A stretch of DNA of 64,000 nt. Source: Deltaproteobacteria bacterium. Its GTDB lineage: Bacteria > Myxococcota_A > UBA796 > SXON01. Position numbers and translations under genes: made by a program. The notes below the pieces were generated by a model. It was given only the letters and a program-made list of their open reading frames with translations. It was not told the DNA's origin and searched no databases. Positions 4,204-48,307 of the stretch are shown one piece after another; the first letter of the stretch is position 1, and each line of letters opens with the position of its first letter. The DNA lies in the NCBI GenBank assembly GCA_947484175.1, contig CANKOI010000006.1:6641-70640 (forward strand), read 5' to 3'.

Positions 4204-4214
4204 CGGCCCTCGGC

Positions 4215-5297: not shown

Positions 5298-5351
5298 ACG
5301 GGTGGCGCGGCTGAACCTAGGGCGGGGCGTGCGTGGCGCGCCGCGGCCACG

Positions 5352-7217
5352 TCAGTCCCGCCGCACCGCGATCGCCCGTGCCCGCTTGCACGCTGCGGCG
5401 ACATCCGCACCGGCGACTTCCTCGCCGGCGTACCGGGTCCGGTAGAGCAACTGCGCGAGCTCCTCGAGCGGCGAGCCGGCCGCCCCGGCCTCCTGGATGA
5501 GCCACCGCCCTGCCTCCAGAGGGGGCAGCTCTGCCGGGATGTCCCATCCACGCGCCACCGACCGCGCACGGGCCGAGCGGAACTTCGTCAGGATCGGATC
5601 GGAGTGATCCTCGCGCCTGGGCGGACGTGCGAGCCACCACAACGTGACCCGAAGGAACGAGCCGCTCAGCACGAGGAGCGCCAACAGCGCACCCACGCCC
5701 GCGGCGCCCCTGCGCGTGTGATCGCGCACCGGGTCGCCGGGGATCGGCGCCACGAACGCGCTCCCGAGGCGTGCGGCCGCTTCGAACTGCGTGCGGAGGT
5801 CGTAGTCCAGCACCAATGAGAGCCACGCCTCATTGGCGGCCTCGCCGGCCAGCTGCAGCCAGGAAACGCTGGGGAGTTCGAGGGCTCCCGTGGGCGTCGC
5901 ATCGACGACCACCCAGCCGCCGCGCACCGCCACCTCGACCCATGCGTGGGCGTGCCCGCGCCGCACCGCTAGGTAGTCCGCGGCGCCGTTGTACTCGTCT
6001 GAGTAGAACCCGGTGGCAAGGCGCACCGGCACCCCGCGCGCCCGGAGCAACACGGCGAGGGCGCTGGCGTAGTACTCGCAGTGGCCGGCCTTCGCATCGA
6101 GGAGGAACCAGGCCAAGGGGTCGCCCACCGGTGCGTCGGGCTCGAGCGTGTAGGTGAACCCCTCGCGTAGCGCTGCGGTGGCCGCGGCGATGATCGATGC
6201 CGCGTCGGTGCGGCCGGGGGCGAGACTCGCGGCGAGGGCCTGCACGCCTGGGTGCAACACAGGCAGCTGCACCAACTCCGGGGTGGCCGGCCCGACCTCG
6301 TCGAGCGCTCGACTCCGCGAATAGGTCTCGTACGCGAGCCGCTGGCCCGCTTGGGTGTGTACGAGCTCACCCTGGCCCCCCTGAAGCATCGGGCCGAGGT
6401 CACTCGTGGCGTAGAGGAGATCCGGCGGCCCATACACCACGGTGCCCAGCAGCGGCTCCAACATCACCTCGGCGCGCGTGTCCCACGCGCCCACCGAGGG
6501 CACACGAACTCGCCCGCTCACCGACCAGCGGGTGCCGTCGAAGTGGTCCATCGAGCGACCGCGGAGGTACTGGGGACCATGCACGCGGGTGCCGTCCCGT
6601 GCGTACGTGCGCACACGCATCACGAGCACGCCGCGGTCGCCGTCGTCGGACTCGTCGCCCAGCGCCACGTCGTCGGCGAAATCTGTGTCTTGGCCAACCT
6701 CACCCGACGAGGCGAGAAGGCCGCCTTGGAGCCGCGGCACCAGCACGAAGAAGGCCAGAGAGAGCGTGAGGGTGCCCGCCGAGGTGCCCAGCGCCAACCG
6801 CCGGTCGTGCACGCCGTTGGCATGGAGGAGCGCAACCGGGGCCGCCGCGGCAAAGAGAAGTAGAGCGGGAGCGAGCGCCAGCGAAAGTGCGCCCACCGTG
6901 CCGACCAGCGCCATGAGCGTGCCCAGCAGGAGGAGCACACGCTCGTCGGCGCGCCCCTCTGCGACCACGGCCCGGTGGGCGGCCAGCCAGCCGAGGAGCA
7001 GGGCGAAGGCGGGCACCACGTCCACGAAGTACAGCAAGGCGCCCGAGCCCGCGAGCACCGCGAGGTGCGCCCCCGTCCAGTCCTGAACGAGGCGAAGGCG
7101 CGAGCCTCCCACGAAGCCGACCACCGTGAGCGCGGCCGCGATCGAGCCCGCCCATCCCGAAGCGGCGAGGCACACGGCACCCGCCACGGTCGCGGCAGCG
7201 AGCGGGGCGCGCGTCAA
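5352..7217 (-). CDS. transglutaminase-domain membrane protein (TgpA-like)
   Basis: Multi-TM N-terminus, then the core GHCEYYASALAVLLRARGVPVRLATGF...HAWVEV. Its start overlaps the DUF58 stop. Confidence 0.8.
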   Translation of the reverse strand: MTRAPLAAATVAGAVCLAASGWAGSIAAALTVVGFVGGSRLRLVQDWTGAHLAVLAGSGALLYFVDVVPAFALLLGWLAAHRAVVAEGRADERVLLLLGTLMALVGTVGALSLALAPALLLFAAAAPVALLHANGVHDRRLALGTSAGTLTLSLAFFVLVPRLQGGLLASSGEVGQDTDFADDVALGDESDDGDRGVLVMRVRTYARDGTRVHGPQYLRGRSMDHFDGTRWSVSGRVRVPSVGAWDTRAEVMLEPLLGTVVYGPPDLLYATSDLGPMLQGGQGELVHTQAGQRLAYETYSRSRALDEVGPATPELVQLPVLHPGVQALAASLAPGRTDAASIIAAATAALREGFTYTLEPDAPVGDPLAWFLLDAKAGHCEYYASALAVLLRARGVPVRLATGFYSDEYNGAADYLAVRRGHAHAWVEVAVRGGWVVVDATPTGALELPSVSWLQLAGEAANEAWLSLVLDYDLRTQFEAAARLGSAFVAPIPGDPVRDHTRRGAAGVGALLALLVLSGSFLRVTLWWLARPPRREDHSDPILTKFRSARARSVARGWDIPAELPPLEAGRWLIQEAGAAGSPLEELAQLLYRTRYAGEEVAGADVAAACKRARAIAVRRD

Positions 7218-8137
7218 CGGTGCTCCAAAAGCGCCATCGCGGTGAGCAGCCGCCGGCGCCAGACGGCGCCGGTGCGGGGCGGCAAGCTCTGTCCGTCCAC
7301 CTCGATCCCCACGGCGTTTCCTTGTGCGAGCTGCTCCTCCGCGCGTCCCGCCACCCGCTCGATCGCCGCCTCGCGCGCCTCACCGCGCAGCGCGGGATCG
7401 AGGCGCAGCATCAACTCCTCTACGCCTTGCGCCGAACGGTTGACCACCATCGGCTCGCCGACACGCGCGGTCGTGGGCCAGTGGACCCGCCGCAAAGGGT
7501 CGCCCGGTCGCCACGGGCGCAGGCCCGCGAAGTCGCCCGTCGCGCTGGGGCGCCCCCGCGCGGCGGCGTCCTCCCCGTCGCCCTGAGGGGCAGGTGGCAC
7601 CGGCCGCACCGACGCTGCGGGGTAGACGAGCACTTCGTCGGTCAGCGCCACGTCCCGCCACCGCCGGACCATCCCGAACGGGAAGTCGGACTGGATCCGA
7701 ACGAACGACAGGGTGGCCGCGCCGCGCGCCGCCGCCAAGAATTCCGCCGGCGCCTCGCAGGCTTCACCGGGCGGGCAGCGCTCCACCCGGGCCCGCGCCG
7801 CCACGTCCCCCCGTTCGATGAGCTCCACCTGCCAGGCCGCGCCGCGGCCGCGGCCGTTCCGTAGAATCAACCCGCCGGACGCCGGTATTCCCGCCCGCAG
7901 CTCCGCTGGCAGCCGTCGCTCTACCGAGAGAGACCGGAGGTTCCACTCCGCGAGCACGTTGGCCACCACCAGCGCGGCCAGAAGCACGCCCAGCACCAGG
8001 TACACGAGGTTGTTGCCAGTGTTGACCGCGCCGAACAGCACGCCGCCCACCAACGCGAGGTACACGGCGCCCGCGCGGGTGGGGGCCACCCGGTTCACCT
8101 CACCGAAGCCCCAACGCGAAGGTGCAGTGGTGGCCAT
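7214..8137 (-). CDS. DUF58 family protein
   Basis: The ATG at 8137 is preceded by GAGGGCGAGG. Two N-terminal TM helices (VNTGNNLVYLVLGVLL) and DFAGLRPWRPGDPLRRVHW. The upstream part of the 410-aa track ORF is Arg-rich noise. Confidence 0.8.
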   Translation of the reverse strand: MATTAPSRWGFGEVNRVAPTRAGAVYLALVGGVLFGAVNTGNNLVYLVLGVLLAALVVANVLAEWNLRSLSVERRLPAELRAGIPASGGLILRNGRGRGAAWQVELIERGDVAARARVERCPPGEACEAPAEFLAAARGAATLSFVRIQSDFPFGMVRRWRDVALTDEVLVYPAASVRPVPPAPQGDGEDAAARGRPSATGDFAGLRPWRPGDPLRRVHWPTTARVGEPMVVNRSAQGVEELMLRLDPALRGEAREAAIERVAGRAEEQLAQGNAVGIEVDGQSLPPRTGAVWRRRLLTAMALLEHR

Positions 8138-33126: not shown

Positions 33127-33707
33127 CCCACGAGCTCCGCCTCACGCCGCAGACCCGCAGCGTCGAGGGCGATGCGACGGGCCAGAGGGTGCGACCAGTT
33201 GGCCGCCAACGCCAGAGCCACCTCGTCGTAGTACCAGAGGGTGCCATCCCGGCCGCCGGTGAAGCGGTCGAAAACGGCGGAGCCTACCTCGCCCAGATCG
33301 CGACGGATCGCCGCGCAGTTATGCACCTTATCGGCGGCTGAAATGAGCTTGAGCTCCGCAGGCGCGTTTCGAAGGTGCGAAAGGTACCGCTCCTTCCGCT
33401 GCCGCCACGGTGGCTTCGGGTGGCCCACGGAGTCCGAAAGGCCACCGACGAGGCCCGCCACACGCGCACCGAACCGTTCTTCCAGTACGGCCACCTTGGC
33501 GCCCGGAATGTCCTCGAGCCAATCGTGGAGCACCGCGGCGATGAGCTGGTCTTCGTCGCCTCCGTACTCGCCGACGAGGCTCATCACCGCGAAGAGGTGA
33601 GTGAGGTAGGGAGTGGTCGAGCCCTTCCGCCGGATGCAGCGAAAGTCCTGAATCGCCATGGCTACGGCAGCGTCGAGTCGTTCGCTGTAGCAAGGCGCGG
33701 TCGGCAC
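33123..33707 (-). CDS. HD-domain phosphohydrolase (SpoT/RelA hydrolase-like)
   Basis: RRKGSTTPYLTHLFAV...AAVLHDWLED. I prefer the GTG at 33707, because the track start at TTG 33773 would overlap the divergent gene. Confidence 0.65.
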   Translation of the reverse strand: MPTAPCYSERLDAAVAMAIQDFRCIRRKGSTTPYLTHLFAVMSLVGEYGGDEDQLIAAVLHDWLEDIPGAKVAVLEERFGARVAGLVGGLSDSVGHPKPPWRQRKERYLSHLRNAPAELKLISAADKVHNCAAIRRDLGEVGSAVFDRFTGGRDGTLWYYDEVALALAANWSHPLARRIALDAAGLRREAELVG

Positions 33708-33758
33708 TCGCCACGCTATCCCGCTTGCCGATCCACACGCCCGAACATACACGATGGC

Positions 33759-34703
33759 ATGGCAATGCTCCAAGAGTGGAACGTACGGATGGGGGACTCC
33801 GAGGCCGTGGTCTCGGCGGACAACTGGCTGGCAGCTCTGGCGCTCGCCCTCCCGCTACTGGGCCTCGATTTGGGAGCGATGGGGAGGCTGGTCTGCGCCA
33901 CCGACAGCGATGGCAGCGCCACCGCGCGCGACCCACGCTCGGGCGCCGAGCTACACATTTCTCCAGTCGGCCGGGGGCAGCCGCCGGCGTTTGCGATGCC
34001 CGAGTCCAGCTTCGCCTCCATCAACGCGCCCCAGCTCCGCACGCGCGCGCCGGAGGAGCCGCCGCGCCCGGCTGCACCCGCGCCTACGCCCCCACCCGCG
34101 CCTACGCCCCCACCTGCGCCCACCCCCGCGCCCAGCCGCGCAGTGGAGCCACCACCACCCGCGCCCGAGGTGCAGCCTCTCCCGGAAGTCCCGCCTGAGC
34201 CGCAGCAGGCGCTCGGGGATCGCCTTGAGGACCTGTTCATGCGCCTCGGCGACATCAACGACGCCTCCAACGTGAGCGAGGCGTGTGCCACCGCCTTGTC
34301 GATCGCCTCCGAACTTGTGCCTTGCGATGCGGGCGCAGTACTCCTCCGCACCCAGGCGGGCGACGCGCTGCGTTTCATGGCCTCCCACGGTCCCGCCGGA
34401 AAGGCCGTGCTCGACACGACGATCCCCCTCGACCGAGGAATTGCTGGCTTCGTCTCACAGCTCGGCTTGAGCATCACCATCCGGGACGCGCGGACGGATC
34501 AGCGGCACTATGGCCGGGTGGACAAAAGCACCGGCTACACCACCCGCTCGATCCTCGCGGCGGCCGTGCGTACCGACAGCGGGGGCTGCTACGGGGTGCT
34601 CGAACTGATCAACCCGCCCGCGCGCTTCACCGCCGACGACCTCGAGATCGTCTCCCGGGTGGCCGTGACACTCGCCAACTACCTCCAGGGCATGCACGCC
34701 TAG
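33759..34703 (+). CDS. GAF-domain protein with Pro-rich linker
   Basis: C-terminal GAF-like domain (VLLRTQAGDALRFMASHG...GIAGFV...SILAAAV...GVLELIN). The ATG at 33759 is the first possible start beyond the divergent HD gene. Confidence 0.6.
   Translation: MAMLQEWNVRMGDSEAVVSADNWLAALALALPLLGLDLGAMGRLVCATDSDGSATARDPRSGAELHISPVGRGQPPAFAMPESSFASINAPQLRTRAPEEPPRPAAPAPTPPPAPTPPPAPTPAPSRAVEPPPPAPEVQPLPEVPPEPQQALGDRLEDLFMRLGDINDASNVSEACATALSIASELVPCDAGAVLLRTQAGDALRFMASHGPAGKAVLDTTIPLDRGIAGFVSQLGLSITIRDARTDQRHYGRVDKSTGYTTRSILAAAVRTDSGGCYGVLELINPPARFTADDLEIVSRVAVTLANYLQGMHA
34076..34111 (+). repeat. 2 x 18-bp perfect tandem repeat (ACCCGCGCCTACGCCCCC) in the Pro-rich linker
   Basis: Counted directly. 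It encodes PAPTPP repeats, with a degenerate third copy. Confidence 0.8.
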
Positions 34704-35023
34704 ACGGGCATGTTCCAGATGGACTGGTAGGCCTCGACGAACTTGTCGCGAACGCTGCCCATCGCGCGCAGCGTGATGTTTGCCTCTTCCAGCGCAACCA
34801 TCATGCCCGCGTAGTCTTGGTCCTGCCCTGACATCACTTCGTACACCTTCTGGTCCGACGCGGCCTGGTACTGCTCGGTGCGGTCGACCGCGCTGGCCAT
34901 CGCCTTGCCGAAATCCACCCCACCGGCCGACTCCGCCTGAGCGGCACCGCTGCCCGGGCGGGTGACATTCGGTGATTCCAAACCGGTGAGCAGCCCCGGG
35001 TTCGCTCCAATTGCCGTAACCAT
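34700..35023 (-). CDS. fliE: flagellar hook-basal body complex protein FliE
   Basis: 107 aa with the C-terminal LRAMGSVRDKFVEAYQSIWNMPV signature. It follows flgB-flgC. Confidence 0.85.
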   Translation of the reverse strand: MVTAIGANPGLLTGLESPNVTRPGSGAAQAESAGGVDFGKAMASAVDRTEQYQAASDQKVYEVMSGQDQDYAGMMVALEEANITLRAMGSVRDKFVEAYQSIWNMPV

Positions 35024-35026
35024 TTG

Positions 35027-35452
35027 TTACCTCCCGATCCCGATCGCAGCCATCGCCATGTCGCGCGTGGCCTCGATCACGTTGGCATTGGCCTCGTAGG
35101 CGCGCTGGGCCGTCATCAGGTCGACCATCTCCCCCATCACGTTGATGTCGGGAAGCAGCACAAATCCGCGCGCGTCGGCGTCGGGATGAGTGGGATCGTA
35201 ATGCTGGATGGGTGGCCGGTCGTCGCGGTTGATTCCGCTCACCACCACGCGCTGAGTGGCCGCCTCCAGAGAGTTGCCGAAGGGGTCGAGCGCTTCGGAC
35301 TCGAACACGGGCACCTGCCGCCGATAGGGGCCGCCCTCCGGCGTGCGGGTCGTGCGCGCATTCGCCATATTGGAGGCGATCGTGGTGAGCCTTGCCCGCT
35401 CCGCCGCCAGCCCGCTGGAGGCCACGGCAAAGGCATCGAAGAAGTCGGCCAT
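35027..35452 (-). CDS. flgC: flagellar basal-body rod protein FlgC
   Basis: Contains SGLAAERARLTTIASNMANARTTRT and MGEMVDLMTAQRAYEANANVI. Confidence 0.95.
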   Translation of the reverse strand: MADFFDAFAVASSGLAAERARLTTIASNMANARTTRTPEGGPYRRQVPVFESEALDPFGNSLEAATQRVVVSGINRDDRPPIQHYDPTHPDADARGFVLLPDINVMGEMVDLMTAQRAYEANANVIEATRDMAMAAIGIGR

Positions 35453-35847
35453 CAGCTCCTCCCATCACTGGCGGCGAACTTGAGCATCGCGAGCCGCCTG
35501 GAGGCGCCTCCGACCGCCGCCTGGTAGAAGAGCTTGTTCTCCTCCACCCGCGCCGCTTCCCGCTCGAGGTCCACCGAATTTCCGTCGAGTGACCACGCCG
35601 GTGCTTCGAGCTCCGTGAGTCGCTCCTCGAGGAGCGAGTTCAGGTCTACCGACTCGCCGGCCACGGCCTTTGCCATCGCCTCGCCGAGCAGCTCCGAGAA
35701 GGGCAACTCCTTCGCGAGGTAGCCAGGAGTGTTCACATTCGCCAAGTTGCCGTTGGTGAGCAACTGGCGCGCTTGGGTGATCTCCATCGCGTGGCTCAGA
35801 CCACTCTGGAGACCATCGAAGAGCTGCAGTCCGGTCGTAGAGACCAT
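35452..35847 (-). CDS. flgB: flagellar basal-body rod protein FlgB
   Basis: Contains LLTNGNLANVNTPGY and LDGNSVDLEREAARVEENKLFYQAA. TGATG junction with flgC. Confidence 0.9.
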   Translation of the reverse strand: MVSTTGLQLFDGLQSGLSHAMEITQARQLLTNGNLANVNTPGYLAKELPFSELLGEAMAKAVAGESVDLNSLLEERLTELEAPAWSLDGNSVDLEREAARVEENKLFYQAAVGGASRRLAMLKFAASDGRS

Positions 35848-35868: not shown

Positions 35869-35895
35869 CCATCGGTCAGCAGGGGAAAATGTTTA
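35869..35895 (-). promoter_or_regulatory. sigma-28-type promoter TAAA-N15-ACCGATGG upstream of flgB
   Basis: The minus strand reads GGTGCTAAACATTTTCCCCTGCTGACCGATGGGGAGGGCGGAGGGAAAGCCCCATG. Confidence 0.55.
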
Positions 35896-35913: not shown

Positions 35914-38064
35914 TCAGGGCGTCCGGCGCTGCTTGAGTTCGGCCCCGAGCACTCGCTGCGCCTCTTCTTCGCGGGCCAACGCACCCCATATGCTAGGGTC
36001 TGCCCCCGTTGCCTGCGCGAAAAGCGGGTTCACCGTTCGGCCGGCGTCACTCTCGAGCCTTGACGCCCTGGAGCCGGCCCAAGCGCGCACGTCGCCGTCG
36101 GAGGCGAGTCCCGCGACGGCCACCGCCGCATCGGCGGCCGCCGCCGTACGACCGGTAGCGAGGAGGCAGCGCAGCAGCGTTTCCTGAACGACAATGCCGT
36201 CGCTTCCGGCTGGAGGCGACTCCGCGGCGACCTCCAGTTCGGGCAGCGCCTCCTCGCACCGACCCTCCCGCGCGTCCAAGATGGCCAGACGGAGCCGGGC
36301 CTGCACGGCGAAGCCGGGCGAACGCTCGAGGGACTTGAAGCGGGCACGAGCCCGCTCGAGGTCGCCGCGACCTTCGGCGGCAAGCGCCTCCAGCCACGCC
36401 AGGTGGCCGTCCAACTCAGGGGCGTTGTGCCGCCGAAGCCAGTCGACGGCGTCCAGAGCATCCCTGTACCCACGAGTTCGTACGTACAGCCCGGCCATCG
36501 CCATCACGGTCGGTCGGCTGTCGATCCCTCGGCGCCGTTCGAGCTCCGCCGCGAACCGCCACGTGGCCTGTGCCTGCTCCGACAGGCCGGCTTCCGCGTA
36601 CGCGCGCGCAATTGGATGGAGCGGCGACGAATCGGCGAGGTGGAGAACGAGCGTCTCCGAACCGACGGCCCGGTGGAGCGCCAGGGCGTCCATGCGGCGC
36701 CCCTCCGTGAGCAGGCGTTCGCTGCGGCGCGTCCACGCCGCCGTGAGGGACGCGCCGACAGGACCCGCAGCGAGCCGGGGAGCCCGGAACACCAACGAGG
36801 CCCAGGCCTCCACAGCCTCTCTCTCCAACCCCAGCACGGCGCTCACCTGCGCCAACAGGTTCAGGCTCTCCTCTCCAGCATCGCCCGGGAGCTTGGAAGC
36901 ACGCTGAAGATCGGGAACGAGGCTCCCCCAGCGAGAGGTCGGCAGCGCCAAGACCGCGAGGTGGCGCGTGCGGGTGCGGAGCAGCGGGCCGAAGGCCGCG
37001 GGGAGATCGTGCTCGCTCACCTCTGCGTAGCCCCTGCGGGCGGCATCGATATCGCCAGCACGAAGCTGGCTGTCGGCCAACAGCAGGCGGCCGACGGCGT
37101 CATCGGGTGACGCCGATTGCGTAGGCGGGAGGGCAAGAAGGGCCACCGCCTCGCTCTCGCAGCCGGCCCGGCTGAGCGCGACCCCGACCAAGCGCCTGTG
37201 CTCTCCCGAAAGGTCCGTGGAGGCGACGGCGCGTGCCATGCCGCGCAGGTCTTTCCCTTCGCTCTGCATCTCAGCCCACAGCATCGCAACCAGCACCATC
37301 TCCGGCGCGCCCCCGGCCGCCTCGGCGTCGCGGGCACTGCGCCGGGCGCCCTCCCAGTCCTTCACGTTCATGCGAGCCCGAGCCGCCTGGAACCGCGCCG
37401 CCACGGCGTGCGCCCCCCCGACCGCGCCGGAGCGGTCGAAGTAGTAGGCCGCCTCGCGCTCGTGACCGAGCGCCCGCAAGAGGGCGGCAAGGCGGTACAT
37501 GAGCCGTTCGTGTTCGCCCGCGGTTTTGGCCTGCGCGAGCAGCCGGCGAGTGTCCCAAACCTCGGTCCACTGGACCACCGAAGGCTCGCCGGCAGACCAC
37601 TCCGGCAACGCCGGAGGCTCCGCCATCGCGTCGAGGCTCCAGCGGCTATCGGCGCCCGAGAGCGGCGCGGGGTTCGGGGGTGAAGAAACACAGACGCTGC
37701 CGTCGAATTTCCCTATTAGGGCCTCCGCGCCCGAGCGCGCCCCAGCGACTAGAGCGAGCGGGGCGACGCGTGGCACCACCACTAGAGCCGCCCCGCCTTC
37801 GGTGGCCCGCACCACCACTGCGGTTCCCGGATCGGTCAGCGTGAGCGCGAGTACCTGCCCTCCCCCCCTCTGCCAGACTTGCACGCGTGCAATCCCGGTG
37901 CCCACGGTCCAACCGACCTGAGGCCCGAGGTCGATCTGGTTCTCGTGCACGAGTACGTCAACGTGGCCCGGGTTGGCAGAGGTGAGCACCTCCACCCTGC
38001 CTCCGGGGGAGAGTTGCAGCTCCAAAGGGAGCGCGAGAGCGATGCTGACAAAAAGCAGGGTCAT
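35914..38064 (-). CDS. secreted 716-aa protein: AMIN-like beta N-domain plus long TPR-like helical repeat region
   Basis: Signal-like MTLLFVSIALALP. The N-domain reads VEVLTSANPGHVDVLVHENQIDLG...VLALTLTDPGTAVVVRATEGGAALVVV, and the remainder is Ala/Leu/Arg-rich helical repeats. Its ATG overlaps the OMP stop (TGATG). Confidence 0.6.
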   Translation of the reverse strand: MTLLFVSIALALPLELQLSPGGRVEVLTSANPGHVDVLVHENQIDLGPQVGWTVGTGIARVQVWQRGGGQVLALTLTDPGTAVVVRATEGGAALVVVPRVAPLALVAGARSGAEALIGKFDGSVCVSSPPNPAPLSGADSRWSLDAMAEPPALPEWSAGEPSVVQWTEVWDTRRLLAQAKTAGEHERLMYRLAALLRALGHEREAAYYFDRSGAVGGAHAVAARFQAARARMNVKDWEGARRSARDAEAAGGAPEMVLVAMLWAEMQSEGKDLRGMARAVASTDLSGEHRRLVGVALSRAGCESEAVALLALPPTQSASPDDAVGRLLLADSQLRAGDIDAARRGYAEVSEHDLPAAFGPLLRTRTRHLAVLALPTSRWGSLVPDLQRASKLPGDAGEESLNLLAQVSAVLGLEREAVEAWASLVFRAPRLAAGPVGASLTAAWTRRSERLLTEGRRMDALALHRAVGSETLVLHLADSSPLHPIARAYAEAGLSEQAQATWRFAAELERRRGIDSRPTVMAMAGLYVRTRGYRDALDAVDWLRRHNAPELDGHLAWLEALAAEGRGDLERARARFKSLERSPGFAVQARLRLAILDAREGRCEEALPELEVAAESPPAGSDGIVVQETLLRCLLATGRTAAAADAAVAVAGLASDGDVRAWAGSRASRLESDAGRTVNPLFAQATGADPSIWGALAREEEAQRVLGAELKQRRTP

Positions 38065-38714
38065 CAGAACCGCACCAGCGCCCCACCCGCCACCCGCAAG
38101 GCCGACCAGTCGAACCCGCAGGGCTCTCCGTTACACACGGTGCCCGACACGCTGTCGGCCACGTCGCTCGCTCGGCCCCCGAACGACGCAAAAAGGTCGA
38201 GTCCCTGCGGCCCCTGCGCGCCGGGCGACAACGAGGGACGCAGGTAGGGCGTGTGCCATCGCACCGAAGCTTCCACCAGCGCACCCCAGCGAACGCCCCA
38301 GTCGAGCCTGCCGGGCACCGCCACCTCCGAGCCAGCCTCCTGCCAAACGACCGCGCTCGGCCCCACTCCGCCCAAGAGTGACACCGCCCCCCAATCAAGG
38401 CGACCCGACACCAGCAAGCTCGTAGGCGCGTACCAGATCCACGAGCGAGTGTCGTCGGAGCGAGCGCCCTCCAGCCGTCGGTAGCCGAGCTCCAGCGTGG
38501 TCTCGATCGGCAGCCGCCAGCTCAGCGTGGCGATCCCCTCCAAGGCCAAGCTTCCGCCCAGCTTGGGGTAAGCGGCGACCAGCCCTCCCTGCGTAATGGC
38601 CTCTCCAGAGGCGGAAGCGCCCAGCGCAAAGCCCCCTAAGAGCAGGGATGGATCGAACGGCGCGGGCGCAGCACCCGCCAACGAAACGACCATGGCGATC
38701 GGGAAGGACACCAC
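38064..38714 (-). CDS. predicted outer-membrane beta-barrel protein
   Basis: Alternating amphipathic strands (LALEGIATLSWRL, SWIWYAPTSLLVSGRLDW, WGALVEASVRWH) and a C-terminal GGALVRF ending in Phe. The signal peptide is weak and uncharged. Confidence 0.5.
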   Translation of the reverse strand: MVSFPIAMVVSLAGAAPAPFDPSLLLGGFALGASASGEAITQGGLVAAYPKLGGSLALEGIATLSWRLPIETTLELGYRRLEGARSDDTRSWIWYAPTSLLVSGRLDWGAVSLLGGVGPSAVVWQEAGSEVAVPGRLDWGVRWGALVEASVRWHTPYLRPSLSPGAQGPQGLDLFASFGGRASDVADSVSGTVCNGEPCGFDWSALRVAGGALVRF

Positions 38715-38720
38715 GACTCC

Positions 38721-39029
38721 TCAGGCACGGCGCCGCAAGCGGACGCCAGGGTCGGCATGGAGGCAGGCTTGCCCCCTCACCGCCCTGCGCCGGCCGGGGA
38801 TCGCGGCGATTTCTCCGTTCGCTCGCACGCGGGCGAGCCCGATCCCATCGGTGAGCCGGAGGACGACCGCCTGGCCACGCTCCACGTCGGCCGGCGCCGC
38901 GCCCTCCAAGAGGCGGACCAGCTCTTCGATTTGAAGATCGAGCTCCGAAGCACGAACGGGCGCTCCCCGTAGCCAGCCGGCCCGGACGGTCTCCAAATGC
39001 AGCAGGAGTCGATCGAGAGCGGGCGTCAC
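38721..39029 (-). CDS. 102-aa hypothetical protein coupled to fliS
   Basis: Its GTG start overlaps the fliS stop (GTGA at 39026-39029). Third positions are G/C-rich and the N-terminal half is helical. No family recognised; its position matches that of fliT in other taxa. Confidence 0.5.
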   Translation of the reverse strand: MTPALDRLLLHLETVRAGWLRGAPVRASELDLQIEELVRLLEGAAPADVERGQAVVLRLTDGIGLARVRANGEIAAIPGRRRAVRGQACLHADPGVRLRRRA

Positions 39030-39424
39030 CCTGTCCCCTCAACGTCGTCATTGGCGTGTTCGGCAGCGTGCCGGAAGGCCTCGAGGAGGTTCTGGCTCAC
39101 CCTGAGGAGACCGTTCACCCCCTCCACGTCATGGTCACGGCTCAGGTCCCCCAGCCGCCTCACCACCCAGCGGTAGGTCAACGAGAGGTTTTGCACCAGC
39201 TCAGGAGCCACTTCCGGGTCGAGGGCGCCGTGCAGCTCGAGGTAGATGGTGCGCACGGTGGCGAAGTCTTCGGCCACCCGAATGCGGTGGCCCCGCTCGC
39301 CACTCTGCATGGCCGCGCGAGCGCTCTCAAGCCTCGTGATCACCATCTCAAAAAGCATCACCACCACCTGTTCATTGGGGGCGGAGAACAAACGATTCTC
39401 ACGGTAGCTGTCGAGTCCACGCAT
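39026..39424 (-). CDS. fliS: flagellin-specific chaperone FliS
   Basis: 132 aa with a four-helix pattern: VVVMLFEMVITRLESARAAM...VRTIYLELHGALD...YRWVVRRL. It lies directly after fliD. Confidence 0.85.
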   Translation of the reverse strand: MRGLDSYRENRLFSAPNEQVVVMLFEMVITRLESARAAMQSGERGHRIRVAEDFATVRTIYLELHGALDPEVAPELVQNLSLTYRWVVRRLGDLSRDHDVEGVNGLLRVSQNLLEAFRHAAEHANDDVEGTG

Positions 39425-39432
39425 GATTACCC

Positions 39433-40830
39433 CTATGAGTCGCTGGAGGTGGATGTGCTGGGAAGCAGGGCTTCAAGCTGAGCTTGAGAGGCTTGGAGCT
39501 TGCCGAGCGCAATCTCCATCGCGATGAACTGCCTCCGAAGGCGGGCCTCGTAGGCGTCCATCCGTGCGTCGAATGCATCGATGTCGTCGTTGAGGAGCTC
39601 GATCTCGTCGTCGAGCGCCCCCATGCGGTTGGTGAGCATGCCACCGGTCTGCACGATCGCGCCGCTGGCGTCGACCGAGACCTCATCCTCGCTTGCGTAG
39701 AAGTCGATGAGCGCCTTCATGTCGTCGCCGAACGCCGCTGCATCCGTGGCGAACAGCGCCGCCACGTCGTCGCTGGCCTCGTCGAAGGCCTTCTCCATGG
39801 TGTCGTCGTCCACCTCAAGCGTACCGTCCTGCGCCGTCTTGATGCCGATCTCGGAGAGCGAATTGTACAGCGTGCCGCTGCTGTAGGCGGTTCCCACCAC
39901 AGTCTGCATGGCCTGCATAAGCGCCACCACCGTCCCCTCGCCCACGAACTCACCCTTGATCCCGGCATCGGCGTCGTAGGCCCGATGGGTGTTGATGAAG
40001 GTGCGGACGGTGTTGAAAGCCTCCACGAAGGTCTTGACGTTCGCCATGGCCGTGTCGACGTCGCCTGCTACCGTCACCGTCAACGCGGAGCTGGTGACGT
40101 CCTCCAGGGTGAACGTCACGCCGTGCACAACGCCGCCAACCTCGTTGTCGGCACTGGTGACGGCCACTCCGTTGACGGTGAGCTCAGCGTCCAGCGCGGT
40201 ACTCGTGGCCGTGAACGTCGGCACCGTGCCGGCGCCCGTGAGCCCGGAGGTGTCGAGCGAAAGAGAGTTCGTCGCACCCGTATCTTCACCGGCAATGACC
40301 AGCCGGTAGGGGGTTGCGGCATCCCCGGTGTCCATGATGTACGCGGTGACACCGTCAACGCTCTCGTTGATGAGGTCGGCCAAATCGGACAGCGAAGAGT
40401 TGGTGCTGTCGATTGTGAGTGTCGTCGTGACACCCGCGTAGGTGACGCCCAAGGTTCCCTCGGCGATCGTGCCCGTGGCAGTATCGCTAGCGAACCCGTC
40501 TGACACGCTGGTGGCGGACGCCGCGAGCTGCGAAACAGTGATGGAGTATCGGCCGGCCACCGCATCGCCGTCTACTTCGACGGTAACGCTGCCTTCGTCG
40601 GAGCTGCTCCCCGTGGAGGCGCGCAGCTCCGCGGAGGTATCGAGAGCCTCCAGTGCCGTGAGCATGTCGCTCATATGCGTGCGCAACGTTTCATACGCAT
40701 CGCGCCGCTCTTCCACATCCGCGACCTTGGCCTCCATGACGGCCTGAGGCGCTCTGGCGGCCGCGACCAAGCTGGTCACCATGCTGTCAGTATCGATGCC
40801 GCTGACGATGCCGCCTATGCTGATTGCCAT
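39433..40830 (-). CDS. fliD: flagellar filament cap protein FliD
   Basis: N-terminus MAISIGGIVSGIDTDSMVTSLVAAARAP; C-terminus RMDAYEARLRRQFIAMEIALGKLQASQ. Confidence 0.9.
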   Translation of the reverse strand: MAISIGGIVSGIDTDSMVTSLVAAARAPQAVMEAKVADVEERRDAYETLRTHMSDMLTALEALDTSAELRASTGSSSDEGSVTVEVDGDAVAGRYSITVSQLAASATSVSDGFASDTATGTIAEGTLGVTYAGVTTTLTIDSTNSSLSDLADLINESVDGVTAYIMDTGDAATPYRLVIAGEDTGATNSLSLDTSGLTGAGTVPTFTATSTALDAELTVNGVAVTSADNEVGGVVHGVTFTLEDVTSSALTVTVAGDVDTAMANVKTFVEAFNTVRTFINTHRAYDADAGIKGEFVGEGTVVALMQAMQTVVGTAYSSGTLYNSLSEIGIKTAQDGTLEVDDDTMEKAFDEASDDVAALFATDAAAFGDDMKALIDFYASEDEVSVDASGAIVQTGGMLTNRMGALDDEIELLNDDIDAFDARMDAYEARLRRQFIAMEIALGKLQASQAQLEALLPSTSTSSDS

Positions 40831-40857: not shown

Positions 40858-40884
40858 ACATCGGCCGCCCGGCGCCCGACTTTA
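40858..40884 (-). promoter_or_regulatory. sigma-28-type promoter TAAA-N15-GCCGATGT upstream of fliD
   Basis: The minus strand reads TCTAAAGTCGGGCGCCGGGCGGCCGATGTGAG...GGGAGGCGTGCATG. This is the best match to the TAAA-N15-GCCGATAA consensus in the window. Confidence 0.7.
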
Positions 40885-40908: not shown

Positions 40909-40948
40909 GAAAAATGGCGAGGACCGGGCACTACCGCCCCGGTCCTCG
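40909..40948 (-). terminator. intrinsic terminator after flagellin 1
   Basis: The 11-bp stem is CGAGGACCGGG/CCCGGTCCTCG with a 9-nt loop, followed by CCATTTTTC. Confidence 0.7.
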
Positions 40949-41873: not shown

Positions 41874-41919
41874 AAAAAAAAGCGCAACACGGCACCCGGC
41901 CGTGAGGCCGGATGCCGTG
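41874..41919 (-). terminator. intrinsic terminator between the two flagellin genes
   Basis: The 14-bp stem CACGGCAUCCGGCC/GGCCGGGUGCCGUG has one G-U pair that forms only in the minus-strand RNA. The loop is UCAC, followed by UUGCGCUUUUUUUU. Confidence 0.85.
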
Positions 41920-41930
41920 CGCCCGGTCGA

Positions 41931-43801: not shown

Positions 43802-45187
43802 TCAGCCTCCCACCTGGAGAAGGGTACGAAGCAGCTCGTCGGCCGCGCTGAGCACCTTGGCCGAGGCCCGGTAGGCCGCCTGGTACTCAAGGAGATGCGT
43901 GGCCTCCTCGTCGGTGTTGACGCCAGAAATTCCCTCGCGGAGGATCTGGAGGTCGGAGAGCAGCGCCGACTGCGCGGTGCTGTCGCTGCCGGCCGCCGCC
44001 ACGGCGGTGCCGACGTCGCTGACGATCGCACTCGCCGCCGCGCGAGCCGTGCCCACCGGGAAGAGGGTGGTGTCATCCTCGAGCGCGAGGAGGGCTTCGA
44101 GGTTGCCGCTATCGCCCGGGAGCGCGGTGGCTGCCGAGGCGAAGGCGAGAAGGGATGAGTCGGCAGCAATGGTGGCGTTCACGGCCAAGCCCAGCGCCGA
44201 GCCCGGGGCGGTGCCGCCCACATCGAACAACGGGAGCCCCGCCACGCCAGCGCTGTCGAAGCCCGCTGCGTGCTGGGTGTTGAAGGCGTTGGCCACCGTG
44301 AAGGCGAAGGTGTCGAGATCGGTGGCCCAGCCGTCGATCCGCGCCCGCGCCGCCACCAGACCGCCCACGGAGCCGCCTACCTCTGAGGTGATGTCGAACG
44401 TGCCATCGTCCATGCTCACCTGCACCGCGGGGTCGCCCGCGGCGTCGGTGCCGAGCGAGAGCGGCCGGAAATCCCCGCGCCCCACCACGCCATGACCCGC
44501 CACGAACACCACAGCCTGCCCGTTCGCCTTCAGCTGAACTGTGGCTCCCACTTGTTCGGCGAGCTGAGTGAGGAGGTAGTCGCGACGGTCGAGCAGGTCG
44601 CCTGGACCCTCCTCGGCCCCCAAGTTGCCGATCGCGGCGTTGAGCTGCGCGACCTCCGCGAGCGTAGCGTTGACGGTGTCGAGCTCGGCCGCCAGCTCGT
44701 CCTCGGCGCCGGTCAGCCCGTCGGCGAGCCCCCCTGCGATGCGCGAAACGGTGCTGGCGAAGGTGGTCATCGCATACACGGCGGCGCCGCGCTGCGCGGG
44801 GTCGCTGGGGTCGACGGTCGCACTAGCCAACGCGTCGAACACCAAGTCCAGAGACTCCCCGAGCCCGGTGGTGTTCGTGGCGTCGAACAGACCCTCGACA
44901 CCGCTGAGCTGCCTCGAAAGGGTACTCGCCTCACTGGAGGTGCCCGCGGCCTCTACGAGCCGAACGCCGAGCAAGCGGTCGATGGCTCGTGTCACGCCGG
45001 CCGCTTTGGCGCCCTGCCCAACGAACAGCGCGCCCTGCTGCACCGGCGGCAACTGTTCCACCCGCAACGTGCGGCGGCTGTACCCTGGCGTCTGCGCCCC
45101 GGTGACGTTCTGAGCCGTGACGTCGATGCCTGCCGAAGCGACGGCCAAGCCGCGCGCCCCGACGCTCAACGTACCGAAGAGGCTCAA
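43802..45187 (-). CDS. flgK: flagellar hook-associated protein FlgK
   Basis: Starts MSLFGTLSVGARGLAVASAGIDVTAQNVTGAQTPGYSRR; the C-terminus reads LLEYQAAYRASAKVLSAADELL. Confidence 0.9.
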   Translation of the reverse strand: MSLFGTLSVGARGLAVASAGIDVTAQNVTGAQTPGYSRRTLRVEQLPPVQQGALFVGQGAKAAGVTRAIDRLLGVRLVEAAGTSSEASTLSRQLSGVEGLFDATNTTGLGESLDLVFDALASATVDPSDPAQRGAAVYAMTTFASTVSRIAGGLADGLTGAEDELAAELDTVNATLAEVAQLNAAIGNLGAEEGPGDLLDRRDYLLTQLAEQVGATVQLKANGQAVVFVAGHGVVGRGDFRPLSLGTDAAGDPAVQVSMDDGTFDITSEVGGSVGGLVAARARIDGWATDLDTFAFTVANAFNTQHAAGFDSAGVAGLPLFDVGGTAPGSALGLAVNATIAADSSLLAFASAATALPGDSGNLEALLALEDDTTLFPVGTARAAASAIVSDVGTAVAAAGSDSTAQSALLSDLQILREGISGVNTDEEATHLLEYQAAYRASAKVLSAADELLRTLLQVGG

Positions 45188-45516
45188 GAGGCTCTCCGCA
45201 GCACCGCGTGGCGGCTGTAGGTCGAAGGCCCTTGGTCGGGCGCCAACGAGGCGATCGCCTCCAACACACTGTCCCCGCAGGCGCGAATGCGAACGTCGAA
45301 GGACCGAATCATCGCGGCTACCCGCGCGATCTCCTCGCGACGCCCAGACTCCAGCTTCAAGAGCACTTCAACGTCGAGCGCCTCCTGAAGGCTACGCCGC
45401 GTTTCCGTGGCGGCCACGAGTGAAGCCGCGTTGGCGGTGCGGGCTGCCTGGAGCTGATGCTCCACTGCCGCGAGCAACCGCCTTAGGGCGAGCTCGGCGT
45501 CGTCCGCCGTGTCCAT
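45184..45516 (-). CDS. flgN: FlgN-like export chaperone
   Basis: 110 aa, helical, positioned between flgM and flgK. Its stop overlaps the flgK ATG. The call rests mainly on position and size. Confidence 0.55.
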   Translation of the reverse strand: MDTADDAELALRRLLAAVEHQLQAARTANAASLVAATETRRSLQEALDVEVLLKLESGRREEIARVAAMIRSFDVRIRACGDSVLEAIASLAPDQGPSTYSRHAVLRRAS

Positions 45517-45517
45517 C

Positions 45518-45823
45518 TCAGAGGTCGGCCATGAGCGCGCCTACGGCGGCGTTCATGTCGGTTTCGTTGCCGAGCGTGCCGGCAGCGATGTCTGCACGGG
45601 CGGCGGCGACGCGGTCGGCCCGCACCTCGCCGAAGGGGTGGTTGCGGGTAGACTCTTGCAGACGAGAGAGAAAGCCACTCTTCTCCACGCTTGCCGCCGG
45701 CGTCGCCGAGGGCGTGGCCGAGGGGGTGTTGGTGGAGCCGCCGATTTCGGCCGGAGCTGCACTACGGATACGACCGTAAGTGATGGGGCTCGGCGTTGCG
45801 ACTGAGGGTGCAGAAACTTTCAC
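45518..45823 (-). CDS. flgM: anti-sigma-28 factor FlgM
   Basis: The C-terminus VRADRVAAARADIAAGTLGNETDMNAAVGALMADL follows a disordered Ser/Thr/Pro-rich N-terminal region. I prefer the GTG at 45823, which is preceded by GAAGGAGG. The track start at 45856 lies inside the predicted promoter. Confidence 0.75.
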   Translation of the reverse strand: MKVSAPSVATPSPITYGRIRSAAPAEIGGSTNTPSATPSATPAASVEKSGFLSRLQESTRNHPFGEVRADRVAAARADIAAGTLGNETDMNAAVGALMADL

Positions 45824-45883: not shown

Positions 45884-46660
45884 TCAACGATCTTTTTCGC
45901 CAATCGGTCGGAGCCCGCCCCAACTAGCGGGGTCCAACGCCGCTCCATTACGACGCACTTCAAAGTGAAGATGGGGCCCGGTGCTTCGGCCCGTGCTGCC
46001 CACCGTGGCGATCGTCTGGCCCGCCTCGACCACGTCGCCGGCCCGGACCCCGAGGTCTCGGCAATGGGCGTACCGTGTCTCGGCGCCGTCGGGATGGGTG
46101 ACGATCACCACGTTCCCGTAGCTGCCTCGGGCGCCCGAAAATCGCACCACGCCCGCGGCCGCGGCCCGGATGGGCGTGCCGGCAGGAGCGCCGTAGTCCA
46201 CCCCCCGATGAGCCTTCGCTTCGCCGGTGAACGGGTCCTTCCGGGCCCCGAACGCACTGGTCACCCGCACGGCCTCTCCCACGGCCTCTCCCACCGCATG
46301 GCCCGCGGCCGATCCCGCCGCCCTAGCCTTCGCCACGGGGGCCGACGCCGAAGCCTGGGCCGTCTCGCCCCCAGCCGCGAGCCGGCGAGCCTGCAGCGAC
46401 CCGATGAGCTGCGCCTGCAAACCGAATCCACCGGTCTCCGCCACGCGCTCGCCCACTTCCTGGTCGAAGAGCTCGGCGAAGGTGCCCATCGCCCCCTCCG
46501 ACCACGGCCCCTCCTTCACCGTTTCGCGCATCTGCTTCGAGAGCAGCGCCACCATCCATGCTTCAAACTTCCTCGCAGCCGCCTCGTCGGCATCGGCCAC
46601 GTTCCCGTCAGGACCCGTGAGCGCCGCCAGCGAAGAAAGGGAGGAGACGGGGTTCACCAC
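45884..46660 (-). CDS. flgJ: FlgJ-like protein: rod-binding domain fused to an M23 peptidase domain
   Basis: The N-terminal FEAWMVALLSKQMRET...FAELFDQEVGERVAETGGFGLQ is rod-binding-like. The C-terminal HRGVDYGAPAGTPIRAAAAGVV...STGPHLHFEV is an M23 domain. Confidence 0.8.
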   Translation of the reverse strand: MVNPVSSLSSLAALTGPDGNVADADEAAARKFEAWMVALLSKQMRETVKEGPWSEGAMGTFAELFDQEVGERVAETGGFGLQAQLIGSLQARRLAAGGETAQASASAPVAKARAAGSAAGHAVGEAVGEAVRVTSAFGARKDPFTGEAKAHRGVDYGAPAGTPIRAAAAGVVRFSGARGSYGNVVIVTHPDGAETRYAHCRDLGVRAGDVVEAGQTIATVGSTGRSTGPHLHFEVRRNGAALDPASWGGLRPIGEKDR

Positions 46661-46702: not shown

Positions 46703-48307
46703 TCAGAAGCTCTGGGCGGCGCTCGGAGCGGCCGCGCCAGCGTCGGCCCCGGTCATGCCGGTGAGGCGAGCCCGATAGGTTCCAAGGGCCTTGGCGCGCT
46801 CCACAGCCGGCGAGCGAAGCGCCTGCCGCAGCTGGTGGATGGCCGCCTTCGCCACCTTTCCCGCCGGCGCCATGTAGTCGCTCGTCATCACGTCCACGAC
46901 CCGACGGTCGATCAACACCTTCAACAGAGAGTGCGGGAATCGGCCGCTTCGCGCGAGGAATAGGAGGGTGTTGGTGTAGCTGTCGTGCCGCTCGAAGAAC
47001 ATGCGGTCGTAGATTTCGGCCTTCTCGTCGTTCACCAGACCGTCGCGGCTGGCGAGCGTATGCAGCGAGGTACCCGGGTAGTAGATGACCGAGAACACCT
47101 GCAGCCGGTACGGCTTAGGCAGTTCGCTCACGAGCCGCAGGGTGTCGAGCTTGTCCTCGATCGTTTCGTAGGCGAGATCGTAGATGAGGTCGTACTGCGG
47201 AGGCGCGGTGCGGTCGGTGTAGCGGGTGATGACCTCCGCGCTCTTAAGAATCTTGTCGTTGCCCATCGTGGAGCGCTTGAACATCTTCTGGATGCGCTTG
47301 CTGCCGTGCTCAACGCCCATCTGGATGCAGTGGAGGCCCGCGTCTACGAGTGCGCTGTACTTCTCGTCGGTGATCGTGCCCGGGCTACCGAGGAGGTAGA
47401 AGGGATCGCCGATCTTCGCCTTGTACTGGGCGGCGAAGTCGAGGAGGTCGGGCAGGGGGCGCCCGAAGAAGCTGTCGTCGGAGAACCAGATGAAGTTGAT
47501 GAAGGGGTACTCGCGCTTGATCGTTTCCAGCTCGCCGATGACGTGCGGAGTGCTGCGGTAACGAACGTAGCGCTGGCGCTTGTAGAGGTCGCGGTAGAAG
47601 CTGTTGCCGCAGTAGGTACAGGCGTGAGGGCAGCCGCGGCCCGTCATCGTCTGGTACCCGGTCTTGCCAAACATGCGGCTGACGGTGCCGTTGTGCAGGT
47701 AGCGACGAAGCAGGTCCTTGGTGACGGGCATCAACTGCCCTTCGAAGAGGATGTGGTGATCCTCCCGTGAGAAGTCGGGAGCCGGGTAACGGTCGAGCTC
47801 CTGCTCGAGGCTGCCCGGCTGGTTCCGCACGACCTCCGAACCCTTACGCCACACCAAGCTCTTGATGCCGTGCAGGTTCTGACTGTCCCCATTGGCGAGC
47901 TTCGTACATAGGTCGAGCATGAGGTCTTCCGCATCGCCGATCGCCACGTAGTCGGCCCACCGCGCACACTCGTCGGGGCGGACGGAGGGGTGGAAGCCGC
48001 CCCACACGACCGGAATACCGAGGCGCTCCTTCACGGCGCGAGTGATCTGCTTGCTGGAGTCGAAGTAGTGGGTCATCAGCGTGACCCCCACGAGGTCGCT
48101 GCCGGCACAGAGCGCGAGCATCTGGTCGATGACCTCGGGGGAGTACCGGTCTTCGCTCATGCGCACATGCACGCTCTCGCCATCGCCCGCGAAGTCGGGC
48201 ATGCAGATCACCTGAGTCTGGATGCCGTTGGCCCGAAGGTGCGCGCTGATGCTGCGCAGACCGTAGTTCGTGATGTCCGGGTAGGGGCTGATGAGCGAAA
48301 CCTTCAC
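46703..48307 (-). CDS. B12-binding-domain (class B) radical SAM protein
   Basis: N-terminal Rossmann-like MKVSLISPYPD...ICMPDF...GVTLMTH, then GRGCPHACTYCGN (CxxxCxxC). GTG start preceded by AGAGG. Confidence 0.8.
   Translation of the reverse strand: MKVSLISPYPDITNYGLRSISAHLRANGIQTQVICMPDFAGDGESVHVRMSEDRYSPEVIDQMLALCAGSDLVGVTLMTHYFDSSKQITRAVKERLGIPVVWGGFHPSVRPDECARWADYVAIGDAEDLMLDLCTKLANGDSQNLHGIKSLVWRKGSEVVRNQPGSLEQELDRYPAPDFSREDHHILFEGQLMPVTKDLLRRYLHNGTVSRMFGKTGYQTMTGRGCPHACTYCGNSFYRDLYKRQRYVRYRSTPHVIGELETIKREYPFINFIWFSDDSFFGRPLPDLLDFAAQYKAKIGDPFYLLGSPGTITDEKYSALVDAGLHCIQMGVEHGSKRIQKMFKRSTMGNDKILKSAEVITRYTDRTAPPQYDLIYDLAYETIEDKLDTLRLVSELPKPYRLQVFSVIYYPGTSLHTLASRDGLVNDEKAEIYDRMFFERHDSYTNTLLFLARSGRFPHSLLKVLIDRRVVDVMTSDYMAPAGKVAKAAIHQLRQALRSPAVERAKALGTYRARLTGMTGADAGAAAPSAAQSF

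Follow-up and report, generated by a model that had tools for sequence, protein, structure and literature searches.

A fliS-flgB gene module encoding a predicted outer-membrane barrel and a PflA-like repeat protein in flagellar clusters of Myxococcota-type bacteria

The 64-kb stretch of contig CANKOI010000006.1 analysed here (hereafter the window, meaning all 64,000 nt of it; GC content ~68%) carries a flagellar island that occupies 12 kb on the minus strand. Between fliS and flgB of this island lie three open reading frames (ORFs) encoding 102, 216 and 716 amino acids (aa), which we call o102, o216 and o716. The comparative and structural analysis below makes it rather likely that this trio is a set of accessory genes dedicated to the flagellum and inherited with fliD-fliS as one module, o716 acting as a periplasmic scaffold and o216 as its anchor. 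The functions proposed for the three proteins are predictions from synteny and modelled folds.

Organization of the flagellar island

The gene order of the island is flgJ, a FlgM-like gene (101 aa), a FlgN-like gene (110 aa), flgK, flgL, two flagellin genes, fliD and fliS, followed by o102, o216 and o716 and then by flgB, flgC and fliE. The genes and signals that bear on the trio are as follows.

39433-40830, minus strand: fliD (filament cap), heading the unit; Pfam FliD_N 4.7e-22 and FliD_C 3.1e-45
39026-39424, minus strand: fliS (flagellin export chaperone); Pfam FliS 8.6e-16
38721-39029, minus strand: o102 (102 aa); GTG start overlapping the fliS stop (GTGA)
38064-38714, minus strand: o216 (216 aa); first GTG 6 nt (GGAGTC) past the o102 stop
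35914-38064, minus strand: o716 (716 aa); ATG overlapping the o216 stop (TGATG)
35452-35847, minus strand: flgB; NCBIfam FlgB 1e-16
34700-35847, minus strand: downstream unit flgB-flgC-fliE; Pfam Flg_bbr_C and FliE in orthologues
40859-40884, minus strand: sigma-28-type motif TAAA-N16-CCGAT before fliD, 29 nt upstream of its ATG
35870-35895, minus strand: sigma-28-type motif before flgB, 18 nt past the o716 stop and 23 nt before the flgB ATG

The coordinates and the GTGA, 6-nt and TGATG junctions were re-read from the sequence and agree with the initial annotation of this stretch, the fliS/o102, o102/o216 and o216/o716 intervals being -4, +6 and -1 nt. Public gene calls start o216 at the next GTG (38711, 215 aa), which fits the spacing from GGAG better and is the probable true start. 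By codon-position GC, o216 and o716 look coding and o102 gives an ambiguous signal; since each of the three has orthologues at 40-76% identity in related metagenome-assembled genomes (MAGs), all three are considered to be genes.

Transcription signals

The pattern TAAA-N14-16-CCGATR matches twice in the 64 kb (0.05 matches expected), once before fliD and once before flgB. Among related loci, the relaxed form T[AC]AA-N16-[GC]CGA[TA] is found before fliD at the same distance in 8 of 11. Of the 11 loci that contain flgB, 10 (the window, L001, L003, L004, L010-L012, L014, L016 and L017) have (C)TCAAC-N-GGTGACCGA(A/T) 17-23 nt upstream of its ATG, the exception being L020. The relaxed sigma-28-type motif has the character of a phylogenetic footprint, as the surrounding spacers are otherwise diverged in the related loci.

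A scan of the interval from fliD to flgB gave no sigma-70-like site and no convincing terminator. Its two weak hairpins, both within coding sequence, are the number expected by chance, and the o716-flgB spacer folds no better than its shuffles (z -0.62). These results bear out the initial annotation, in which the site before fliD was the sole promoter-like element upstream of the trio and no terminator preceded the flgB promoter 18 nt past the o716 stop. An Rfam scan returned one tRNA, far from the trio region, and nothing else.

Both tandem flagellin genes are followed by a strong terminator hairpin of their own (41887-41920 and 40919-40947, minus strand); the second, 3' of fliC2, is followed by a U-run and has a z-score of -3.9. 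Given these strong terminators after fliC2 and fliC1, fliD heads its own unit. A sigma-28-like TAAT-N16-GCCGAT is present upstream of fliC1, and inspection of the short spacer before fliC2 revealed no comparable motif. The simplest reading of the sequence is that fliD-fliS-o102-o216-o716 are co-transcribed, with possible read-through into flgBC-fliE. The packed junctions thus favour the single unit that had been proposed initially, but the description of the trio as co-transcribed with late flagellar genes is unsafe, because the rod genes flgB-flgC-fliE have the same promoter type as fliD. The presence of a motif of the fliD class before flgB-flgC-fliE suggests that the flagellar regulon of this lineage is flat and non-hierarchical, or dominated by FliA.

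Conservation of the trio in related lineages

The order fliS-small ORF-barrel-TPR-flgB, where the last two encoded proteins correspond to the outer-membrane protein (OMP) o216 and the tetratricopeptide repeat (TPR) protein o716, was identified in 14 distinct lineages (the window, L001, L003, L004, L010-L012, L014, L016, L017, L019, L020, L023 and L024). Across these loci, OMP identity falls to 28% and TPR identity to 23%, and genomic GC content ranges from 42 to 70%. The interval between the OMP stop and the TPR start always lies between -4 and +1 nt. Closer loci keep the extended order fliD-fliS-small-OMP-TPR-flgB-flgC-fliE, including L003, where the small ORF is uncalled in the public annotation, and L014. 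No locus outside a flagellar cluster was found among the related loci examined in the 14 lineages, adjacency of the trio to fliD-fliS in related genomes having been proposed as a check in the initial annotation.

Word-indexed searches recovered a small clade, with 6 clusters for the TPR protein, 19 for the OMP and 6 for the small protein, which derive from lake metagenomes and from MAGs labelled Myxococcales, Deltaproteobacteria or Proteobacteria bacterium. An exhaustive search of 1.84 billion protein representatives with a profile built from the OMP alignment yielded 47 clusters (50% identity). Cluster lengths are mostly 190-260 aa, the two exceptions (1012 and 1436 aa) being long multi-stretch matches, and every cluster of the subset with a checkable context is flagellar. 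A literature search on flagellated freshwater Myxococcota returned nothing specific.

Among the distant OMP relatives with genomic context are P0034 (39% identity, L016), P0079 (32%, L017) and P0061 (29%, L019). Fringe profile matches with E ~3e-4 in L023 and L024 occupy the same location between fliS plus the small ORF and the TPR gene; a protein nearly identical to one of the L023 contig is labelled 'Myxococcota bacterium' at NCBI. In all five of these loci the barrel gene lies between fliS with the small ORF and the TPR gene, and flgB comes next where the contig reaches that far. Their small proteins are homologues of the o102 family, and their TPR proteins measure 705-740 aa when complete (the L019 copy, cut by the contig end, has 457 aa) and align with o716 at 26-34% identity, over the full length when the gene is complete. 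One more distant OMP match, P0054, lies on an 851-bp contig with an uninformative context.

A further case came from a metagenome scan with FliG. The metagenome contig Ga0206130_10004291 (L020, positions 3274-7453), with 42.5% GC, has the fliS-small-barrel-TPR-flgB order; its barrel scores 52 bits against the hidden Markov model (HMM) of the family, and its TPR protein, 732 aa long, shares 23-25% identity with the family. The occurrence of the module at 42.5% GC implies a much greater age and a wider distribution than those of the high-GC lake clade. The narrow lineage specificity suggested as a possibility in the initial annotation is therefore abandoned, the module being present both in diverged Myxococcota-labelled MAGs and in a 42% GC lineage.

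The same conservation bears on whether the trio, or o216-o716, could be a general envelope module, for example a Tol-Pal/CpoB-like or outer-membrane tethering system. Both TPR proteins and 8-stranded barrels are general-purpose components of the envelope, and neither protein has a flagellum-specific Pfam or NCBIfam domain. Against this stand the identical fliS-flgB position in 14 lineages whose identities fall to 23-28% and whose GC contents span 42-70%, the lack of an own promoter or terminator, and the contexts of the checked OMP clusters, all of which are flagellar with no Tol, Pal or Lpt neighbours. We consider a general envelope function very improbable, and the searches made assigned none of the three proteins to an unrelated family such as Tol-Pal, Lpt or polysaccharide export.

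As a separate observation, the interval between the TPR gene and flgB is an insertion hotspot, although in the species of the window it is empty of the genes found there elsewhere. In several species it holds an HDOD gene (Pfam 4e-38) with a 4-nt overlap at the TPR stop (L003, 12777-13736; L014, 12702-13658; L017, 12731-13537 on the opposite strand). The same site is occupied by an RCC1-repeat gene in L016 (13146-13958), and in L010-L012 a gap of ~1 kb separates the TPR gene from flgB. Another extra gene, encoding 169-176 aa, is located between the small protein and the barrel in L023 (9493-10023) and L024 (7511-8020); its product has no Pfam match, no signal peptide and an Arg-rich C-terminus, and the gene overlaps the barrel start by ~20 nt.

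The 716-residue TPR protein

The AlphaFold model of o716, built from a 6-sequence alignment, has a mean predicted local distance difference test score (pLDDT) of 75 and divides the protein into the following parts.

N-terminus, minus strand: predicted signal peptide of ~12 aa, hydrophobic, short, uncharged and FlgI-like
37771-38025, minus strand: beta-sandwich, aa 14-98; 7 strands in the AlphaFold model, pLDDT 55-80
37570-37770, minus strand: linker, aa 99-165; predicted disordered, pLDDT <50 (aa 102-162)
36100-37569, minus strand: TPR-like alpha-solenoid, aa 166-655, ~15 helix pairs; pLDDT mostly 80-94
35914-36099, minus strand: C-terminal helices and stop codon; IWGxLAREE motif, aa 691-700

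Of the two features named in the initial annotation, an AMIN-like beta domain and TPR-like repeats, both the beta domain and the repeats appear in the model, whereas the AMIN-like designation finds no support in Pfam. The Pfam matches of o716 are TPR_19, TPR_16 and TPR_21, all weak. The linker is marked by two motifs, C-x8-PL-x-G-x-D and LPxWxxxEPxVxW, that are kept in 11 of 12 aligned family members. The C-terminal IWGxLAREE is the second most conserved block of the protein and reads ETIWVELVDEQ in the 42% GC homologue. We found no transmembrane helix in o716, the N-terminus being the only conserved hydrophobic segment in the family alignment. Strands are absent from the model after aa 98, so it lacks a mid-protein beta pair of the PflB type.

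Foldseek searches of the model against the PDB returned mostly eukaryotic TPR scaffolds, and the top matches are all TPR solenoids. The entry at rank 3, 9hmf_K (E 7e-8), is a chain of the Campylobacter jejuni periplasmic motor scaffold and gives the longest alignment (799 columns); it is the sole bacterial entry in the top 50, with a template-modelling (TM) score of 0.29 that eukaryotic TPR proteins reach alike. Its chain length of 773 corresponds to residues 16-788 of a protein of 788 residues, and we take it to be most likely PflA.

PflA consists of an N-terminal beta-sandwich, an unstructured linker and 16 TPRs, and its residues 16-168 are needed for PflB binding (PMC12222027). The predicted architecture of o716 parallels this closely, with a signal peptide, a beta-sandwich, a linker that ends at ~165 (168 in PflA) and a superhelix of ~15-16 TPRs, and its linker has its analogue in the PflB-binding linker of PflA (PMC12222027). 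Sequence conservation is lacking in PflA and PflB, and multi-TPR proteins encoded at most five genes from flagellar clusters, defined operationally by at least three consecutive TPRs, have been proposed as potential PflA homologues (PMC11870540); such proteins occur in ~52% of flagellated species, Bdellovibrionota and cultured Myxococcota among them (PMC11870540; reviewed in PMC13023049). The class also comprises FlcA/FlcB of Borrelia, MotC/MotK of alpha-proteobacteria and CC_2058 of Caulobacter. Like these proteins, o716 is encoded in a flagellar cluster and lacks a transmembrane helix, and like them it shows no sequence conservation across phyla. With its TPR repeats and with a gene that is flanked by fliS and flgB in the window as well as in 13 further lineages, the modelled protein qualifies by the published criteria as a potential PflA homologue. 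The assertion of the initial annotation that none of the three proteins resembles a named flagellar protein is thereby contradicted, as o716 is structurally PflA-like in its model, and its suggestion of a PflA-type accessory role for the TPR protein gains support from the predicted architecture and from the Foldseek match to the C. jejuni motor scaffold. There are also differences from PflA: the neighbour of o716 is an integral outer-membrane barrel rather than flgY or pflB, and its gene lies in the fliD-fliS unit. The candidates reported by Feng et al. (PMC11870540) for cultured Myxococcota, ~430-457 aa, are shorter than o716.

The 216-residue predicted outer-membrane barrel

The AlphaFold model of o216 (19 sequences; pLDDT 79.5, predicted TM score 0.73) contains eight long antiparallel strands. 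Its best Foldseek matches are the OmpA transmembrane domain, Ail, OmpX, NspA, OmpW and the N-terminal barrel of OprF (E 1e-6 to 1e-4). On this model, o216 is predicted to be an 8-stranded integral outer-membrane beta-barrel of the OmpA/OmpX type, which substantiates the initial description of a beta-barrel protein ending in Phe. The C-terminus reads ...VRF, and F is the last residue in most of the 26 aligned family members, the rest having L, Y, P or K. The protein shares with the OmpA N-terminal domain, OmpX, Ail and OmpW the same fold (Foldseek E ~1e-6, target TM score 0.6-0.76), a C-terminal aromatic residue and conserved charged residues that are predicted to lie within the barrel. It is set apart from the OmpA/OmpX family by an identity of 8-15%, by motifs of its own, by a long periplasmic turn and by its exclusively flagellar context, and it matches no Pfam OMP family.

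The family-specific motifs are SWxWYAP, GxGPS, GRxDWGxRWG and CGFDWSA, and the strands keep Gly, Pro and charged residues (E38, E59, R152 and R181). The third periplasmic turn is unusually long (aa 156-170), and the last external loop contains a Cys pair that is kept in most family members. A barrel enzyme of the PagP/PagL type was rejected, since the family alignment has no conserved His/Ser/Asp set; o216 accordingly looks like a closed structural barrel.

The predicted signal peptide of o216 is short and uncharged, resembling that of FlgI of the relatives, and there is no lipobox, as no Cys occurs near the N-terminus. In this lineage FlgI, the barrel and the TPR protein all have signal peptides of ~11-17 aa without a positively charged n-region (window, 38064-38030 and 38714-38670; L016, 1226-1270; L017, 1029-1080). 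The L020 barrel carries a conventional long signal peptide.

The accessory proteins FlgP, FlgO, FlgT and FlgQ resemble o216 in being outer-membrane-associated and encoded with flagellar genes; they tether periplasmic motor scaffolds to the outer membrane. FlgO and FlgP are lipoproteins with an SHS2-type or mixed alpha/beta fold and FlgQ resembles two FlgP protomers, whereas FlgT is a soluble ring protein (PMC13521929, PMC12222027); o216 instead is predicted to span the membrane as an 8-stranded barrel without a lipobox. An analogy to FlgO/FlgP/FlgQ was rejected on these grounds, those proteins being lipoproteins of other folds. A literature search of limited reach found no description of an integral-barrel flagellar component.

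The pairing of a TPR gene with an adjoining barrel gene also occurs in split TPR-porin exporters of the PgaA, BcsC, AlgK/AlgE or PelB type, which might here serve a flagellar sheath or a glycan. Weak NCBIfam matches of o716 to PrsT (5.9e-5) and PgaA (0.0029), far below the cut-offs, point in the same direction. Yet o216 has 8 strands with a closed OmpA/OmpX-like interior and internal charges, as opposed to the 16-18 strands of synthase-dependent polysaccharide exporters, and no glycosyltransferase or synthase gene was found in any of the loci. We rejected the exporter candidate on these two points, and its probability appears negligible.

The 102-residue protein downstream of fliS

The small protein o102 has a helix-favouring composition and no signal peptide, and it is therefore not an envelope protein. 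Of the three envelope genes proposed in the initial annotation, o216 and o716 stand, and o102, predicted to be cytoplasmic, is withdrawn. Orthologues of o102 show 40-69% identity and conserve both the turn W-x-x-G-x-P-V-R and, at the C-terminus, the basic motif IPxRRRAxRxxACL. No match was obtained in Pfam, NCBIfam or the PDB, with Pfam E-values up to 10 considered over 9 family members, and hhalign comparisons of the o102 family with E. coli FliT (probability 0.1), E. coli FliS and the FlgN-like 110-aa family of the cluster revealed no relationship.

The site directly after fliS with a start overlap is the classical fliT position. For the window, L003 and L014 this placement was established from the sequence itself, and for the remaining loci from public gene calls. 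The resemblance to FliT further includes a length of ~100 aa, a cytoplasmic location and the helix-favouring composition, and in L020 the positional equivalent of o102 matches Pfam FliT over its full length, though below threshold (E 0.034). To our knowledge, the conserved Arg-rich C-terminal motif of o102 is not a feature of FliT.

Two other small genes of the island are relevant here. At 45184-45823 of the window (minus strand), the 101-aa gene matches FlgM weakly (E 1e-3). For the 110-aa gene that precedes flgK, Pfam gave nothing in the window and a weak FliT match in the L001 orthologue; the gene probably encodes FlgN, which leaves o102 as the sole FliT candidate. A FliT-like chaperone or regulator is our best guess for o102, with the balance about even. 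The initial suggestion of a FliT analogue is thus sustained by gene position and, beyond the sub-threshold match in the distant positional equivalent, not by similarity. Somewhat doubtful in comparison is a regulator unlike FliT, such as a second FlgM-like protein or an RNA-binding factor acting through the Arg-rich tail. It would account for the conserved basic motif G/P-RRRA-x-R-x-x-A and for the lack of FliT similarity in the window protein, but it does not explain why the fliD-fliS-fliT position and the overlap with the fliS stop are kept where the junction was read, nor the FliT-like size and composition or the L020 match, and the cluster already has a separate FlgM-like gene.

A candidate accessory module of the flagellar motor

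We propose that o716 is exported to the periplasm, where it would surround the basal body with TPR repeats arranged as radial spokes or as a scaffold, in the manner of PflA-class proteins. Its C-terminal IWGxLAxEE motif may contact an axial partner, for example an E-ring or FlgY-type protein, and by analogy with PflA-PflB its N-terminal sandwich and linker could dock a peripheral partner. In the same scheme o216, inserted into the outer membrane by the BAM machinery, would be the anchor or partner of the o716 scaffold, taking the role that lipoproteins (FlgP, FlgO) or PflB/PflC have elsewhere, and its long periplasmic turn (aa 156-170) could serve as the peptide that docks into the TPR groove. 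The product of o102 would stay in the cytoplasm as a FliT-like export chaperone or regulator for FliD.

Alternatively, o216 and o716 may be assembly factors, o716 resembling a TPR pilotin or chaperone (compare PilF for PilQ, or BamD) and the barrel aiding the L/P-rings, hook or filament in crossing or sealing the outer membrane. Co-transcription with fliD-fliS, which are assembly and chaperone genes, would suit such a role. Moreover, PflA and PflB themselves resemble PilF, a pilotin of type IV pili (PMC11870540), and C. jejuni FlgQ has been suggested to be a low-abundance component or an assembly chaperone (PMC12222027). On the other hand, the beta-sandwich, linker and ~500-residue TPR superhelix match PflA and differ from short lipoprotein pilotins, o716 has no lipobox, and the strongly conserved terminal motifs suggest stable partners. 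We regard an assembly role as unlikely, and the scaffold and anchor reading of o716-o216 is preferred.

Several points weigh against the scaffold and anchor reading. Profile and single-sequence searches against PDB sequences, including those with the L020 homologues, gave no sequence similarity of o716 to PflA, and the identity of 9hmf_K as PflA rests on its chain length. The TM score of 0.29 to this scaffold chain is low and is matched by eukaryotic TPR proteins, so the likeness to PflA may reflect convergence instead of homology. The proposed physical contact between o216 and o716 rests on the coupling of their genes, o102 has no detectable similarity to FliT, FlgN or FliS, and the organisms that possess the module are uncultured. 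PflA spokes sit near the inner membrane in C. jejuni, and an outer-membrane anchor would therefore need another geometry. No PflB-like partner was found at the loci examined, and no E-ring protein of the FlgY/FlbB/MotE type (MgtE_N) was seen in the part of L020 within reach of the FliG scan, which extended to fliH-fliI. The window itself carries only the late-gene island of the flagellar genes, and the FliG scan did not recover the target lineage.

A stronger version of the proposal is that o216 is the first dedicated integral outer-membrane motor component, paired 1:1 with a PflA-class spoke, tethering the stator/E-ring scaffold and distributed throughout the Myxococcota. We put this forward tentatively, as a possibility that is less probable than not.

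Other genes of the island

Besides the genes discussed above, flgJ (45884-46660, minus strand) encodes a protein whose rod-binding domain is joined to a Peptidase_M23 domain in place of a muramidase domain. Next upstream of flgJ, throughout the clade of the window, lies a B12-binding radical SAM gene (46703-48307). At the other end of the island, a GAF-domain gene (33807-34703, plus strand; longer ORF 33375-34703) converges on fliE, their 3' ends overlapping by 4 nt. The GAF-domain gene is present at this place in all related loci, and the upstream part of the longer ORF holds a PAPTPPPAPTPPPAPTPAP repeat.

Implications for flagellar motor diversity

Flagellar motors have diversified chiefly in their periplasmic scaffolds, which determine stator number and torque. 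Spokes of the PflA type have been proposed to be ancient and widespread, and their partners are hardly known beyond Campylobacterota, spirochaetes and alpha-proteobacteria. As the PflA class itself is already known to be widespread, the new element reported here is a conserved, dedicated integral barrel coupled to a PflA-like gene, and within the literature searched such a barrel would be a partner class not yet seen in any motor. The module offers a conserved three-gene candidate set for flagellated Myxococcota-type bacteria, with candidate interaction sites amenable to mutation in the linker and C-terminal IWGxLAxEE motif of o716 and in the extended periplasmic turn of o216, and it extends the PflA-like catalogue to an uncultured, mostly freshwater lineage. 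If the proposal is true, the stator/E-ring scaffold of these bacteria would be anchored by a transmembrane barrel instead of lipoprotein disks.

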